IMG/VR virus record: IMGVR_UViG_3300047272_000219
Span: 1-35,506 of that record
Length of the DNA stretch: 35,506 bases
Source: a virus
Lineage: Duplodnaviria; Caudoviricetes
Reading direction: 5' to 3' (one strand)
Of this stretch, positions 4,102 through 29,429 are shown in pieces; positions within the stretch are counted from its first letter, which is position 1, and every line of letters starts with the position of its first letter. Below the pieces are notes generated by a model. The model saw only the letters and a program-made list of their open reading frames with translations. It made no database searches and had not been told where the DNA came from. Both the position numbers and the translations under genes were made by a program.

Positions 4102-4562
4102 GCAACTTTCCCATCAAACGCATCGTCGTTCACTGCACGGCCACCCGTGAAGGGCAGGACGTAAGCGCCGCCACGATTCGCGGCTGGCATCTGAAGCAGG
4201 GTTGGTCGGACATTGGCTACCATTATGTCGTTCGGTTAGACGGCCAGATCGAGAAAGGTCGCCCAGACACAGCCATCGGCTCTCATGTCAAGGGCTGGAA
4301 CAAGAACAGCATCGCCATTGTCTATGTCGGCGGATTGGATAAAGACGGCAAGCCCAAGGACACTCGGACTTCAGCCCAGAAGAAGGCGCTGAAGGAAATC
4401 ATCACCCGTATACGTGCGTTGCACAAGAACCCACCAGTTATGGGCCACCGCGACCTATCGCCAGATAAGGACGGCGATGGCATTGTCGAGAAGCATGAAT
4501 GGCTGAAGGAGTGCCCATGCTTCGATATGCCAGCTTGGTTTGCTCAAGGTATGCCAATATGA
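4098..4562 (+). CDS. Endolysin, N-acetylmuramoyl-L-alanine amidase (Amidase_2, T7-lysozyme-like)
   Basis: IVVHCTAT, GWSDIGYHYVV, GSHVKGWN, GHRD and KECPCFD Zn-amidase motifs. Confidence 0.95.
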   Translation: MSNFPIKRIVVHCTATREGQDVSAATIRGWHLKQGWSDIGYHYVVRLDGQIEKGRPDTAIGSHVKGWNKNSIAIVYVGGLDKDGKPKDTRTSAQKKALKEIITRIRALHKNPPVMGHRDLSPDKDGDGIVEKHEWLKECPCFDMPAWFAQGMPI

Positions 4563-4822
4563 TCAGCCTCCTGTGGACACCAAACGGGCGCAGGGCCGCT
4601 GCGTTCGGCGCACTGCTTGGCGGTTGTATCATTATGACGATCTTCGCGGCTGTCGGCGTGTGGCTTGTGTCGGGAAACACAGCGTACACCTTCTATCTGG
4701 CATTGGCTGCTCATGCGCAGATTATGCTTGGCCTGACTGCCTTTACTGCACTGTTTGTAAGGCGGCACATATCCGTGGGCAAAGACGGCGTTAAGATAGA
4801 GGACCAACCCCGTGCTGACTAA
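4559..4822 (+). CDS. Two-TM membrane protein, probable holin/antiholin
   Basis: ATG overlaps the endolysin stop (ATGA); two hydrophobic helices; charged C-terminus. Confidence 0.65.
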   Translation: MISLLWTPNGRRAAAFGALLGGCIIMTIFAAVGVWLVSGNTAYTFYLALAAHAQIMLGLTAFTALFVRRHISVGKDGVKIEDQPRAD

Positions 4823-5312
4823 ATTTGTTCCGTATCTGAAGTTCGCACCGTATGCTGCAATAGGGCTATTTGCCCTTCTGGCGGCTGTACAGTGGCAGAG
4901 CGCACGGCACTGGGAGAAACGCTACATTGGGTCAGAGAAGGCCCACGGCGCCACCGTAGCGGCTTATACTGGCGCACAGATTGCGGCTAAGGAGTTAAAC
5001 AAGGCTAAGGTCGCTCAGATTGAGCGCCAATATGCCGCCATATCAGAAAAGGCAGAATCCGATTATGAAAGACGTATTGCTGATAACCGCGCTTCTGTTG
5101 ACCGCTGGATGCGCAACCAAGCCGCTAAAGGTTCTACCGGAAGCACCGGAGCAAGCCAAGACGCCCCAATGCCCGGTGAAGTTGTGTCAGGAACCGAAAC
5201 GGCCATCATTCCTATTGCCGATCTCGAAATAGTCGCTGACGCCTATGCGCAGTTAGATGCGCTAAGGGCTTGGGCGCTTGAGGTTGGTCAGGTTACTGCT
5301 CACAATCCTTAA
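4812..5312 (+). CDS. i-spanin (Rz-like)
   Basis: N-terminal TM helix, Ala-rich coiled coil, follows endolysin/holin, and contains a nested lipoprotein ORF. Confidence 0.75.
   Translation: MLTKFVPYLKFAPYAAIGLFALLAAVQWQSARHWEKRYIGSEKAHGATVAAYTGAQIAAKELNKAKVAQIERQYAAISEKAESDYERRIADNRASVDRWMRNQAAKGSTGSTGASQDAPMPGEVVSGTETAIIPIADLEIVADAYAQLDALRAWALEVGQVTAHNP
5065..5232 (+). CDS. o-spanin (Rz1-like lipoprotein), nested in the i-spanin gene
   Basis: MKDVLLITALLLTAG-C lipobox signal, Pro-rich mature part, +1 frame inside the Rz-like gene. Confidence 0.75.
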   Translation: MKDVLLITALLLTAGCATKPLKVLPEAPEQAKTPQCPVKLCQEPKRPSFLLPISK

Positions 5313-20130: not shown

Positions 20131-20152
20131 TCGCTACCACATAAACAAATGG

Positions 20153-20179
20153 ACCCGGCCATAGTGCCGGGTTTTTTTT
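20153..20179 (+). terminator. Intrinsic terminator of the early operon
   Basis: ACCCGGC-CATAGT-GCCGGGT followed by a T-tract. Confidence 0.9.
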
Positions 20180-20363
20180 GTGCCTATTGCATAGGCATTG
20201 CCCGCCATTGCGCGGGCCTTTGGCGCTTGCCCATAGACGCCCATATAAGCCGTTTGAGCCTATGCCATTGCCATTGGCTATATGGGTAGCAGGGGCCGTC
20301 ATATCGACGCCCTAGCGGCGCTCTGTGGCGCTCTGTGGCATATGCCAGCGCGTTACAGAAAAC

Positions 20364-20407: not shown

Positions 20408-20572
20408 ATTGATTTCAAGAGAGAGCAATTTCCAAACCTATTCTTGAAATATTGTTGCGCAGATTGGGGCTAGACACGCAAAGCCGTTGGTGTCACAATG
20501 CCAAAACGAAGCCGTAAGTCCGGTTTCAAGCGAGTGATAAAATAATATTTTTATGGGAATTTAGGAACCATT

Positions 20573-21013
20573 GTGACAGCACAACAGCGCAAACCCACAA
20601 CTGGCGGCGTAATTATCGGCTCATCTTATGACGAGGCTCGGACACGCAAGGTTAATGCCGAAGCGGAGATCGCAGAACTCGAACTGGCGAAGATACGCGG
20701 CACGCTCTGCATGACGGACGATGTGGTTAAGGCGTGGGAGAGTGTTCTGCACGCTTGCAAGGCCAAATTCCTGTCGCTGCCCACCAAGGTCGCACCTGTT
20801 GTGGCGAACGAGAGCGATGTGGCGAAGGTCAAGGACTTTTTGGAGAGCGCGGTCCGCGAGGCGCTCATGGAACTGTCGAACTACCAGCCGGAGATTGACC
20901 CTGTGCGGACTGGCAGTGGCGCTGTCGAAAATGACCCCAGCGGTGAAGAGGAAGCGCCAAAGCCCAAGCGCAAAGTTGGTCGCCCGAAGAAGGGTCGAAC
21001 GATAATCGTATGA
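20573..21013 (+). CDS. terS: Terminase small subunit (Nu1-like oligomerisation part)
   Basis: YDEARTRK..AEAEIAELELAKIRGTL...LSLP; ATGA-coupled to terL. Confidence 0.8.
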   Translation: MTAQQRKPTTGGVIIGSSYDEARTRKVNAEAEIAELELAKIRGTLCMTDDVVKAWESVLHACKAKFLSLPTKVAPVVANESDVAKVKDFLESAVREALMELSNYQPEIDPVRTGSGAVENDPSGEEEAPKPKRKVGRPKKGRTIIV

Positions 21014-22866
21014 TCGAACAAGCCACCAGACAGAACGCACTGGAGCAAATGGCTAAGGCCATGAAGCAGATGACGCCGCCTCCACGCATGAGTGTGGCGC
21101 AATGGGCGGATCACGAACGGCGGCTGGACTCGCAGAGCAGTGCGGAGCCGGGTCGGTGGATTACATCCAGAGCAGAGTATCAGCGCGGCATCATGGACGC
21201 TTGCTCTGACCCACTGGTCAAAGAGGTGGTGGTTATGTGCGGTGCGCAGCTTGGCAAGTCTGAGATGCTGCTCAACACCATTGGCTACCACATGGCGCAT
21301 GACCCAGCGCCGATCTTGATGATGCAACCGACTGTGGACATGGCCCAGTCGTTCTCGAAGGACCGCGTGACAGCGGGTCTTCTCCGTTCAACCCCTTGCC
21401 TTCGGGACAAGGTCAAAGACAGTAAGGCTAAAGATGCAAACAACACTACGCTTCATAAAGTTTTTCCCGGTGGCGCTCTTTCTCTGGTCGGTGCTAATTC
21501 TCCTAGTTCCCTTGCTTCTCGTCCGATTCGTGTTGTTCTTTGCGATGAAGTTGATCGATATCCTCCTTCTGCTGGCGAGGAAGGTGACCCTATATCTCTT
21601 GCCAAGCGACGGGCAGCTACCTTCTGGAACAGGAAGATCATTTTAGTATCGACGCCGACCAACAAGAACGCCAGCCGCATTGAGGCTGCGTATGAAGAAA
21701 GCGACCAGCGCAAGTTCATGGTTCCGTGCCACGACTGCGACCATTTGCAGGAAATGACTTGGGCTAACGTCAAATGGCATGACGATAATCCGCACACCGC
21801 CTTCTATTGCTGCTCTGAGTGCGGCTCTGTCTGGGGCGATGCGGAGCGGCGCAAGGCCGTGTCGAAGGGTGAGTGGGTTGCCAATAAGCCGTTCAACGGT
21901 GTGGCTGGCTTCCATCTCAATGCGCTTTACTCGCCGTGGTCGGTGCTGTCGGACGCGGTTGAGGAGTTTTTGGCCGCACGCAAAGACCCCATGCGCCTCA
22001 AGACCTTTGTCAACACCTTCTTTGGCGAGACTTGGGAGGATCAGGGCGAAGGTGTCGATGATTACGCCATCTCCAAGCGCAAAGAGGATTACGAAGGTAT
22101 CCCTGATGACGTTGTTGTCCTCACCTGTGGCGTTGACGTTCAAGATGACCGCTTAGAAGCTGAGATTGTCGGCTGGGGCGCTGGCGAAGAAAGCTGGCAA
22201 ATCGAGTATCATGTTCTGTATGGCGACCCATCCAGTCCTGCGCTGTGGGCAAAGCTGGACGAGATTATTCTGGCGACATACGAGCATCCAAGCGGTGAGC
22301 CTATGCTGATCCGCGCAACTTGCATTGACTCTGGCGGACACCACACCCGCGCTGTGTATAACTATGCCAAGACCAGAGCGGGGCACAGGGTCTTTGCCAT
22401 CAAGGGTGTTGGGGGCGAGGGTAAGCCCATTGTAGGACGGCCTTCGCGCAACAACATCGGAAAGATACCGCTTTACCCAATCGGCGTTGATACTGCGAAG
22501 GAATTGCATTACGCCAGACTGCGTATTGACGAGCCGGGTGGCGGATATTGCCACTTCCAAGCCAAGCGCGATGATGAGTATTTCCGCCAGCTAACGGCTG
22601 AAAAGCAAGTGGTTCGCTATCATAAGGGCTACCCCACAAGGGCGTGGATCAAGACGCGGACTCGAAATGAGGCACTTGACGTTCGAGTTTATGCGATTGC
22701 CGCTTTCCATATTCTCAATATTAATATAGATAGCATAGTCAATCGGTTTCATGCTACTATAAACCGTAGGACTGAGGCTCTTTCTGGGGCCGAAGATGTG
22801 AAGCCACACCCGCTGGCCTCAAGGAAAGGGCCAAAACGAGGTGGTTTTGCTAATAACTGGCGTTGA
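21010..22866 (+). CDS. terL: Terminase large subunit, lambda gpA family
   Basis: GAQLGKSE, CDEVDRY, VSTPT, CHDC/CSEC, GFHLNALYSPW, GVDVQ, IDSGG, RNEALD. Confidence 0.97.
   Translation: MIEQATRQNALEQMAKAMKQMTPPPRMSVAQWADHERRLDSQSSAEPGRWITSRAEYQRGIMDACSDPLVKEVVVMCGAQLGKSEMLLNTIGYHMAHDPAPILMMQPTVDMAQSFSKDRVTAGLLRSTPCLRDKVKDSKAKDANNTTLHKVFPGGALSLVGANSPSSLASRPIRVVLCDEVDRYPPSAGEEGDPISLAKRRAATFWNRKIILVSTPTNKNASRIEAAYEESDQRKFMVPCHDCDHLQEMTWANVKWHDDNPHTAFYCCSECGSVWGDAERRKAVSKGEWVANKPFNGVAGFHLNALYSPWSVLSDAVEEFLAARKDPMRLKTFVNTFFGETWEDQGEGVDDYAISKRKEDYEGIPDDVVVLTCGVDVQDDRLEAEIVGWGAGEESWQIEYHVLYGDPSSPALWAKLDEIILATYEHPSGEPMLIRATCIDSGGHHTRAVYNYAKTRAGHRVFAIKGVGGEGKPIVGRPSRNNIGKIPLYPIGVDTAKELHYARLRIDEPGGGYCHFQAKRDDEYFRQLTAEKQVVRYHKGYPTRAWIKTRTRNEALDVRVYAIAAFHILNINIDSIVNRFHATINRRTEALSGAEDVKPHPLASRKGPKRGGFANNWR
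21434..21646 (+). CDS. Putative overprinted membrane protein in the +1 frame of terL
   Basis: ATG with upstream TAAGG; 35 of 50 terL codons in 21451-21600 end in T versus 6 of 40 in 21241-21360; long hydrophobic product. Confidence 0.55.
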   Translation: MQTTLRFIKFFPVALFLWSVLILLVPLLLVRFVLFFAMKLIDILLLLARKVTLYLLPSDGQLPSGTGRSF

Positions 22867-22872
22867 GGGATA

Positions 22873-23460
22873 ATGGCAAACCTTTTTGATGAGAGCAATG
22901 CGCCAGAAGGCGAACCTCTGAAGATTGTCGTTGGCGACTTTCTCCAGTGGAAGAAAACGGAGCTTGCTGAAAGTTATCCCCCTGCCAGCTATTCGGCGGA
23001 GTATGTCGCTCGTGTAGCGTCGGGCCAGAGCGGTGAGATTAAGTTAGCGGCAACTGAGCGCACAGATTATTACCTGTTTCAAGCGACAAGCACTACCACT
23101 GCGGCTTTCGAGGCTGGTTTCTATCACTGGCAACTTGAGGTCACGCAGACATCTACGGGCAACCGTATTGTCGTAGAGCGTGGTGAGTTTGAGGCGATTG
23201 CCGACCTCGACAATAACGGCGCTGATCCCCGCACACATGCTGAGATTATGCTGGACAAGATTGAAGGTCTGCTTGTTGGCCGCGCTGACAAGGACGTTTC
23301 GTCTTACTCGATCCAAGGTCGTTCTATTTCTAAGATGACGATTTCTGACCTGTTGCTATGGCGCGACTATTACCGCAAAGAGGTTGTAAAAGAACGCCGC
23401 GATAATGCAATTGAATTGGGTAAACCCACCAAAACCACTATGAAGGTTCGGTTCCTATGA
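22873..23460 (+). CDS. Head completion protein (gpW-like C-terminus with extra N-terminal domain)
   Basis: Between terL and portal; SYSIQGRSISK..ISDL pattern. Confidence 0.75.
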   Translation: MANLFDESNAPEGEPLKIVVGDFLQWKKTELAESYPPASYSAEYVARVASGQSGEIKLAATERTDYYLFQATSTTTAAFEAGFYHWQLEVTQTSTGNRIVVERGEFEAIADLDNNGADPRTHAEIMLDKIEGLLVGRADKDVSSYSIQGRSISKMTISDLLLWRDYYRKEVVKERRDNAIELGKPTKTTMKVRFL

Positions 23461-28487: not shown

Positions 28488-28627
28488 AAATGGTTAAAGT
28501 CTATAACAAAACTGGCGATGAGATACTCGCCTGTGAAGTTGATCTGGACCGCTATGCTCAGATCGGCTGGACGCCCGTCAAAGAAAAGCCCAAGGCGAAG
28601 CCAGTGGCTAAAGAGGAGACTGAGTAA
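28484..28627 (+). CDS. Small virion-module protein (47 aa, MKMVKVYNKTG...), not in ORF track
   Basis: Manual translation; coupled at both ends; GGAG RBS. Confidence 0.65.
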   Translation: MKMVKVYNKTGDEILACEVDLDRYAQIGWTPVKEKPKAKPVAKEETE

Positions 28628-29025
28628 TGGCAACGCATACTGGTTCAGAGGGAACTGTTAAGGTTGGCGCGAACGCCATTGCTGAAATCCGTTCCTATTC
28701 GCTTGAGGAAACTGCTGACACCGCCGAAGATACTTCGATGGGCGACAGCTATCGCACGTTCAAAACCACGCTAAAGGCATGGACCGGATCGGTTGATGTG
28801 TTCTGGGATGAAACCGACACAAACGGTCAGGTTGCCCTTGCGGTTGGTTCTGAGGTGACTGCGAACTTCTTTCCAGAAGGCGCTTCGGCTGGTGTCTCTG
28901 AAAAATATTATACCGGAAACGCAATCGTTACAGGTAAGACCGTAACAGGCAGCTTCGACGGTATGGTCGAATCCACAATCACGCTTCAAGGCACTGGTGC
29001 TTTGACGCTATCCACCTTGGCGTAA
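28627..29025 (+). CDS. Tail tube protein, copy 1
   Basis: G.EGTVKVG...EDTSMGD...LKAWTGS...TITLQGTGAL; GAGGAG RBS. Confidence 0.85.
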   Translation: MATHTGSEGTVKVGANAIAEIRSYSLEETADTAEDTSMGDSYRTFKTTLKAWTGSVDVFWDETDTNGQVALAVGSEVTANFFPEGASAGVSEKYYTGNAIVTGKTVTGSFDGMVESTITLQGTGALTLSTLA

Positions 29026-29036
29026 GGACTATTTAG

Positions 29037-29429
29037 ATGGCAACGCATACTGGCTCTGAGGGAACTGTTAAGGTTGGATCAACCAACAGCATCCTTGAAA
29101 TCCGTTCCTACTCGGTTGAAGAAACATCTGATACTGCGGAAGACACCTCAATGGGTGACAGCTACCGCACCTTCAAGACCACGTTGAAAGCGTGGACAGG
29201 TTCGGTTGACGTATTTTGGGATGAGACCGACAGCACGGGCCAAGGCGCTCTTGTCGTTGGCTCAGAGGTCACTGTTCGGTTCATGCCAGAAGGTGCATCA
29301 TCCGGTGACACCTATCTGACAGGTAGCGCAATCGTAACTGGCAAAACTATCACAGGCAGCTTTGACGGCATGGTTGAATCCACAATCACTCTTCAAGGTA
29401 CTGGTTCGCTGAGTTCTGCTACAGTCTAA
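29037..29429 (+). CDS. Tail tube protein, copy 2 (~80% aa identity to copy 1)
   Basis: Manual alignment: about 106 of 129 aligned residues identical; TAAGGA RBS. Confidence 0.85.
   Translation: MATHTGSEGTVKVGSTNSILEIRSYSVEETSDTAEDTSMGDSYRTFKTTLKAWTGSVDVFWDETDSTGQGALVVGSEVTVRFMPEGASSGDTYLTGSAIVTGKTITGSFDGMVESTITLQGTGSLSSATV

Follow-up and report, generated by a model that had tools for sequence, protein, structure and literature searches.

We found that terL, the terminase large-subunit gene of a tailed phage, very probably carries a second, selected protein-coding gene overprinted in its +1 frame (probability about 0.93, judged from comparisons among terL sequences). The initial annotation had proposed a selected, unannotated hydrophobic gene at this place, and that proposal is now strongly supported by a T bias that depends on the encoded +1 residue, by the avoidance of stop codons, and by the relatives.

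Results

A candidate overprinted gene in the terminase ATPase core

The window, by which we mean the whole stretch of DNA analysed (35,506 nucleotides), is a linear virus record of 35.5 kb that is 99% complete and whose best-matching runs point to a freshwater setting. By gene content it is a lambda-like siphophage, with terS, a gpA-type terL, a portal, a capsid-protease fusion, tail genes, and a lysis region (2.7-5.3 kb) that includes an amidase and spanin-like genes. The closest cultured relatives are Roseobacter phages (TerL identity 57-61%), and a Hyphomonadaceae bin contains one 3.6-kb contig, which may be binning noise. RNA runs yielded contigs of relatives, a kind of data that does not bear on reading frame or expression level. 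The major tail protein genes are duplicated in tandem (28627-29025 and 29037-29429, both phrog_1407); two copies of this gene were also seen in genomes G005, G010, and G014, and one is listed in G017, G018, and G019. The features on which the main finding turns are the following.

21010-22866, plus strand: terL, gpA-type terminase large subunit, 618 aa (phrog_15, E 1e-253)
21423-21427, plus strand: Shine-Dalgarno-like TAAGG, 6 nt before the ATG
21434-21646, plus strand: probable overprinted +1-frame gene, 70 aa, ATG to TAG (from the open reading frame and relatives)
21451-21600, plus strand: zone of third-position T bias in terL, 35 of 50 codons

The overlap takes up TerL codons 142-212, within the GpA_ATPase domain (PF05876, TerL residues 44-289), and includes the VVLCDE motif, which we take to be Walker B. 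The initial annotation had counted 35 T-ending codons among 50 at 21451-21600 as against 6 of 40 at 21241-21360, and recounting returned exactly these figures; the ATG and TAAGG ahead of the bias and the stop shortly after it were all located as described. When the TerL peptide was held fixed and synonymous codons were drawn from flanking terL usage, 35 T-ending codons were reached in 0 of 20,000 draws (mean 13.0), and the richest 50-codon window among 24 other long genes of the phage held 26. A C-to-T mutation bias was rejected as the cause because codons ending in G were as scarce as would be expected of those ending in C under such a depletion (3 and 7 of the 50, respectively). Under the same codon null, 54% of draws contained the ATG and 44% had a frame free of stops; stretches of 90 or more +1 codons without a stop were also common in genes of this set. 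An ATG and an open frame in one sequence are therefore unremarkable, and it is the T bias and the comparative data that carry the case.

Two other parts of terL drew our attention. At terL codons 403-504 the +1 frame is again poor in stops; T bias is absent there, and A-ending codons are mildly depleted at stop-making sites (45/727 vs 67/603). Near the 3' end of the gene, a second T/AT-rich zone (22660-22850) combines low synonymous variation with many +1 stops and has promoter-like matches close by (22723-22752, minus strand; 22847-22874, plus strand); this zone is probably a regulatory signal.

Start signal, open frame, and hydrophobicity go together in close relatives

We gathered terL loci by protein search and codon-neutral patterns and added four Roseobacter phage records; in the viral collection the gpA terL motif has about 2,600 matching stretches. 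The resulting 353 sequences gave 229 distinct, complete, and indel-free copies of TerL codons 125-224, of which 100 were at least 84% identical to the window over these codons and form the close set. These were classed by start signal alone, using a motif picked after the data had been seen: AAGG or AGGG was followed by ATG in 81, and AAGGTG by a GTG one codon later in 3. We refer to these 84 as carriers. AAGG or AGGG stood at the site in 81/81 ATG-bearing open-frame relatives and was missing in the three in-clade ATG-bearing relatives with stops.

A conserved ATG and ribosome-binding site and an absence of +1 stops in relatives were the marks that the initial annotation had proposed for a gene, and both are kept: the +1 frame was stop-free in 84/84 sequences with motif and start versus 8/16 without (Fisher p 7e-8 for the start-signal comparison, whose rows are non-independent). 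A 19-residue hydropathy of at least 2.3 was reached in 83/84 sequences with the start signal versus 0/16 without, and Pro26 of the +1 protein was present in 81/84 carriers versus 1/16 of the relatives without a start signal. The +1 stop fell within terL codons 209-213 in 83/84 carriers, and the protein was 67-71 aa long in 78 of 79 distinct relatives and 82 aa in the other. Mean third-position T excess over the flanks was 0.33 in carriers, 0.09 in the 16 non-carriers, and 0.03 in 129 distant regions, and none of these 129 outgroup terL regions combined an ATG at codon 142 with an open frame. Among carriers, the TerL peptide has a median identity of 99% and identity of the +1 protein goes down to 34%.

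Relatives that keep the T bias with the start lost or with +1 stops, the pattern that had been named as pointing away from a gene, were essentially not found. The 16 start-less relatives had no hydrophobic segment and mostly no bias, with a partial T excess of 0.16-0.21 kept in three. These three (L064, L065, and L067, over terL codons 105-249) have a long stop-free +1 frame and could represent either a decaying or an incipient state of the hidden gene. The 82-aa form (L278, identical to L045, at 761-1006) has the first half of the gene intact and a tail identical to that of a gene-less sister lineage, and is likely a recombinant. Among distant terL genes, L117 and L199 showed a local T excess (25-27 of 50 at codons 148-197) with a +1 stop near codon 159, and L135, a T-rich gene, had a 53-aa hydrophobic +1 ORF after an ATG from terL codon 237 onward, which may be chance.

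The T bias follows the amino acids of the +1 frame

When a uniform T bias was imposed at the matching level, 73% of draws were stop-free and 93% were hydrophobic. Because a plain T-rich signal alone gives a hydrophobic open frame, we asked what the bias follows. Within terL codons 148-197, the core of the T bias, the strength with which T was favoured over C varied with the +1 residue that C would give, with ln odds of 2.12 for Pro, 1.69 for Ser, 1.03 for Ala, and 0.18 for Thr (per-site Kruskal p 2.5e-4). A-ending Leu, Val, and Ile codons made up 127/584 at harmless sites, where they give Tyr, versus 0/513 at sites where they would make a stop. Counted as minimum third-position changes, the A-ending share was 32/84 at 7 harmless sites versus 0/29 at 6 stop-making sites (p 1.9e-5; the tree was built from the same region and the counts are approximate). 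Outside the ORF this contrast was absent or mild, both upstream (134/1379 vs 53/428) and downstream (125/1396 vs 61/754). At two sites a codon that does not end in T is held: terL Ser167 is TCC, which gives Pro26, in 81/84 carriers, and terL Arg183 is CGA or AGA, both of which give Asp42, in 80/84, where these two codons together account for 164 of 1,529 Arg codons in the flanks. Across the aligned genes, these patterns show selection acting on the amino acids of the predicted +1 protein.

We weighed against this the possibility that no protein is made and that the T bias is a signal in the DNA or RNA itself (a binding site, an antisense element, or weakly structured mRNA) with the ORF as a by-product. 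The yield of hydrophobic and often stop-free frames with an ATG under uniform T bias fits such a signal, as does a region that is slightly under-structured (z +1.17). However, the bias depends on the +1 residue, stop-making A-ending codons are absent where harmless ones are common, the rare non-T codons for Ser167 and Arg183 are fixed, and the bias is lost with the start, which itself has moved once; we consider this explanation very improbable. Conserved RNA structure was rejected on the same z value and on two-sided changes in only 2/37 consensus pairs among 21 sequences. An antisense or +2 gene was also rejected; a minus-strand ORF of 114 aa is open in the window, and the alternative frames are stopped in many relatives.

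Losses and a moved start within one clade

We built a TerL tree from which the overlap was excluded (107 rows, with 21 left out for shortness). Every carrier falls within a single well-supported clade (94 rows), and this clade contains four nested losses (L213/L232/L061, L215/L242, L274/L347, and L338), each with T content at background and the start or motif lost. A start-less group of seven rows (L063-L071), three of whose members have a partial T excess, could represent either a fifth loss or an early-branching lineage. Read from the tree, the putative gene is lost at least four times, with start, T bias, and hydrophobicity going together. In 6 independent pairs the T excess followed the start in 5.8 and never opposed it (p about 0.03), and hydrophobicity and Pro26 went in the same direction, short of significance (p about 0.06 and 0.13).

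In L068, L070, and L072 the ATG is lost and a GTG start lies one codon later (L070:514-720; L072:2048-2248); here changes in TerL create a new AAGGTG, 7 nt upstream of the GTG. Translation as a frameshift fusion to TerL is disfavoured by this re-created start and by +1 stops a few codons before the ATG in many carriers.

The TerL peptide itself bears on how such a frame could arise. Its longest internal stretch that lacks K, E, Q, W, and M spans residues 151-179 (29 residues); codons for these five amino acids cannot end in T. A stretch free of them allows T at every third position, so this part of TerL is predisposed to a +1 membrane frame, and the hidden gene would have been born there de novo by synonymous change, in keeping with a distribution narrower than that of terL itself.

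A predicted single-helix membrane protein

21464-21547, plus strand: predicted transmembrane segment, residues 11-38 (prediction; helix in model)
21509-21511, plus strand: conserved Pro26, within the transmembrane segment
21548-21604, plus strand: predicted amphipathic basic helix, residues 39-57 (from the hydrophobic moment)
21557-21559, plus strand: Asp42, within the amphipathic helix

Transmembrane prediction, a check proposed at the outset, gave one long segment in the +1 protein and no second one. The segment begins at residue 11-12 in 53/84 carriers, after a basic N terminus (2.0 K/R in residues 1-11). Arg31 is present in 63/84 carriers and Lys or Arg at position 39 in 84/84, and residues 31-55 hold 4.5 K/R. 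The hydrophobic moment of the amphipathic helix is 0.50-0.59 in carriers versus 0.30-0.43 in sequences without the gene, and a polar tail follows the helix. The initial annotation had likened the protein to one with a Pro-kinked helix. The conserved proline is there; the model shows no kink, as AlphaFold with 44 members gave one unbroken helix over residues 3-55 (pLDDT 82.5, pTM 0.45). Homodimer prediction with residues 1-60 scored 0.02, which we count neither for nor against a dimer. A lipoprotein or o-spanin was rejected, with the lipobox consensus in 0/84 and no invariant Cys, and a cleaved signal peptide is disfavoured, since residue 32, the likely last one before a cut, is Phe in 60/84.

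Five near-identical gene calls exist, all on short contigs. A profile search of 1.8 billion proteins returned only the family itself (2 matches, both of family length), PDB sequences gave no match to the product below E 0.78, a viral fold search gave no E below 0.001, and the best Atlas hit (0.79) led to nothing beyond the family. Against PHROG the best E was 0.0023, in 2 of 44 members and with no holin PHROG, and Pfam gave no match to the +1 protein. By sequence, profile, language-model features, or fold, the family is without a homologue outside itself, and the homologue and fold searches returned nothing that points to any function.

A second terL group with a hydrophobic +1 frame

A scan of the 129 outgroup regions for hydrophobic +1 frames gave three matches, one of which (L130) was followed outward through a comparison of 357 distinct regions. 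This led to six distant sequences (L130, L395, L438, L441, L439, and L466), 64-70% identical to the window, with L447 as a borderline seventh; the six rows amount to about three lineages. Their +1 frame is open from about codon 90 to 195, roughly 100 aa, with two hydrophobic segments and start candidates at codons 90-96, and the ORF had no PHROG match.

L438:776-1075: second-group ORF, hydrophobic +1 frame over TerL codons about 90-195
L394:939-1253: second-group ORF, hydrophobic +1 frame over the same TerL codons

In the six sequences, T at codons 119-185 stood at 88/96 Pro-class versus 27/59 Thr-class sites, A-ending codons at stop-making sites numbered 0/47, and there were no +1 stops; 17 neighbours of the group had 40 stops in the same +1 stretch. 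An AU test on 44 rows rejected a single clade for both groups (p 9e-5), and the TerL peptides of the two groups differ inside the overlap. Together these results point to a separate origin of the second-group frame, which on the sequence comparisons is likely; alternatively, it may reflect an old origin with many losses.

Likeness to known overprinted and nested genes

The phiX174 E protein has a proline in its membrane helix and a basic tail. In the account of E within gene D (PMC8227390), third-position T of D is second-position T of E and yields a Leu-rich transmembrane segment. The hidden gene has the same layout, an internal +1 overlap in which third-position T of the older gene becomes a hydrophobic transmembrane segment. 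Unlike E, it belongs to a tailed dsDNA phage that itself encodes an endolysin and spanins, its host gene encodes the terminase ATPase, and it is dispensable in several lineages. Homology to E was rejected, as there was no sequence or profile match and the E motif RWxxW occurs in 0/84 members.

According to a survey of levivirus lysis genes, 21/33 active sgls lie in the +1 frame of rep, as small ORFs within an essential enzyme that arose de novo repeatedly (PMC7693330). The hidden gene is likewise a small ORF that has a Shine-Dalgarno sequence, lies +1 to the coding frame of an essential enzyme, and encodes a membrane segment. Its membrane helix followed by an amphipathic basic helix, here predicted only, resembles Sgl-type inhibitors and LysM, which is described as having a membrane helix and then a C-terminal amphipathic helix (PMC12506998). 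The levivirus sgls are sole lysis genes of RNA phages and lie mostly in poorly conserved parts of Rep; unlike them, the hidden gene sits on the most conserved part of TerL, in a phage that has endolysin and spanin-like genes. Embedded o-spanins such as lambda Rz1 within Rz are nested, usually unannotated, and membrane-targeted (PMC6139136). The hidden gene shares this character in a tailed phage; unlike Rz1-type o-spanins, it has no lipobox in any carrier and is not inside an i-spanin gene, and the window has a separate nested spanin pair. The hidden gene resembles E and the Sgls in origin and layout and is not a member of those families. The open-licence literature, in the text available, held no description of an overprinted or nested gene inside a terminase; the initial annotation likewise knew of none at this position in gpA-family terminases.

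Relation to the lysis cassette and possible functions

The phages are mosaics whose replication and lysis modules vary, and the hidden gene stays with terL and the head module. Among carriers the endolysins come from at least four unrelated families (phrog_822, 181, 315, and 7), and a gene-less genome (G019) has the same cassette type as a carrier (G005). In the window, the cassette at 2.7-5.3 kb lies about 16 kb from the hidden gene. Two small, hydrophobic holin-like genes (2714-2914 and 4517-4822) flank its phosphoesterase and amidase; they had no named holin-family match, and of 18 near-complete virus records (one non-carrier included) only 12 and 14 contained them. An i-spanin-like gene (4812-5312) contains a nested o-spanin-like ORF (5065-5232) that bears a lipobox, and neither had a named family match.

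Because cassettes are swapped around a gene that is kept, the hidden gene is not a needed holin and is not likely tied to one holin. A partnership with the phage's own lysis cassette, as holin or antiholin, would suit its small size and its membrane helix with a basic tail, the two hydrophobic segments of the second terL group, which recall class II holins, and the putative role of the cassette's holin-like genes, which match no named holin family. We nevertheless hold it to be decidedly improbable, given that the gene coexists with non-homologous cassettes, that one cassette type occurs both with and without it, that it matched neither Pfam nor a holin PHROG, and that it lies so far from the cassette.

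Independence from the lysis cassette would point to a host-side target and underlies our guess at an accessory role; we chose an envelope inhibitor because the known phage +1 overprinted membrane proteins considered here are lysis proteins. By this analogy, we tentatively propose, at somewhat less than even odds, that the product is an E- or LysM-like protein that assists lysis by inhibiting a protein of the host envelope. The gene would be co-transcribed with terS and terL from a late promoter, for which there is one weak candidate.

20471-20499, plus strand: sigma-70-like promoter match, candidate late promoter, upstream of terS (20573-21013); weak

The region held 4 promoter-like matches versus 1.7 expected, none of which falls after terS and ahead of the hidden gene. 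Upstream of terS, in non-coding DNA where one would look for a packaging site, there are also a terminator-like hairpin (20151-20174) and a short direct repeat (about 20317-20340). Translation would likely start from the gene's own ribosome-binding site inside terL and give a small inner-membrane protein whose amphipathic basic helix is predicted to lie on the cytoplasmic face. Late in infection this protein would likely bind and jam a host envelope protein, perhaps a cell-wall precursor enzyme or flippase, and so aid the ordinary lysis genes of the phage. As a counterpoint, an extra lysis protein is not needed in a phage equipped with an endolysin, spanin-like genes, and two holin-like genes, and early expression at the start of the late operon could risk premature lysis.

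An exclusion or lysis-inhibition factor, which would block DNA entry or a receptor pathway and guard progeny from superinfection, is unlikely but has several points in its favour. T4 Imm and HK97 gp15 are small exclusion proteins of similar size and layout, and the single membrane helix of the hidden protein is typical of them; the gene is independent of the lysis cassette, its repeated loss fits a host-specific benefit, and a position near the start of the late operon suits a protein that does not kill the cell. Most exclusion genes, however, are expressed early or from a prophage, and the product has no homology to any exclusion family, nor did the window proteins scanned (part of the ORFs) include an integrase match.

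Alternatively, the protein could block an immunity triggered by the terminase or other late proteins, for example the membrane effector of an Avs-type system. The location inside terL would guarantee its synthesis together with the trigger, and module swapping cannot part the two. Avs2 binds the terminase ATPase domain (PMC11564622), and a frame of this kind was acquired in two terL groups. The permissive 29-residue run of TerL accounts equally well for the repeated appearance of such frames here, and we regard immunity blocking as quite unlikely.

A part in head assembly or terminase dosage, as a portal or procapsid anchor or chaperone or through translation that tunes TerL output, would fit a gene that stays linked to the head module through exchanges of the replication and lysis modules. 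It is improbable, since L213, L232, and L061 lack the gene despite a near-identical TerL segment (94% over 100 residues), portal, and capsid, and since selection on Pro26 and Asp42 exceeds what a translation-only device would need.

Discussion

Overprinted membrane proteins have been described in tiny ssDNA and ssRNA phages and as nested spanins. The hidden gene offers an exceptionally full record of the life of a de novo gene on a near-invariant essential enzyme, with birth, selection, a moved start, and at least four losses, to which a probable second origin at the same place in terL adds. We raise as a speculation, itself doubtful, that the gpA terminase ATPase core is a recurrent birthplace of genes, where at least two lineages would have gained a new, homologue-free class of host-envelope inhibitors hard-wired to packaging. 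Equally speculatively, membrane proteins would arise there by synonymous change alone and might serve as protein antibiotics or immunity blockers.

For work on these phages, the finding means that selected genes inside the most widely used phage marker gene escape standard annotation and that synonymous sites in this stretch of terL are not neutral. If the product jams a host envelope protein, the family would supply a ready set of about 80 naturally occurring versions of a new small antibacterial protein; should the product block immunity, it would explain how the phage hides its terminase.
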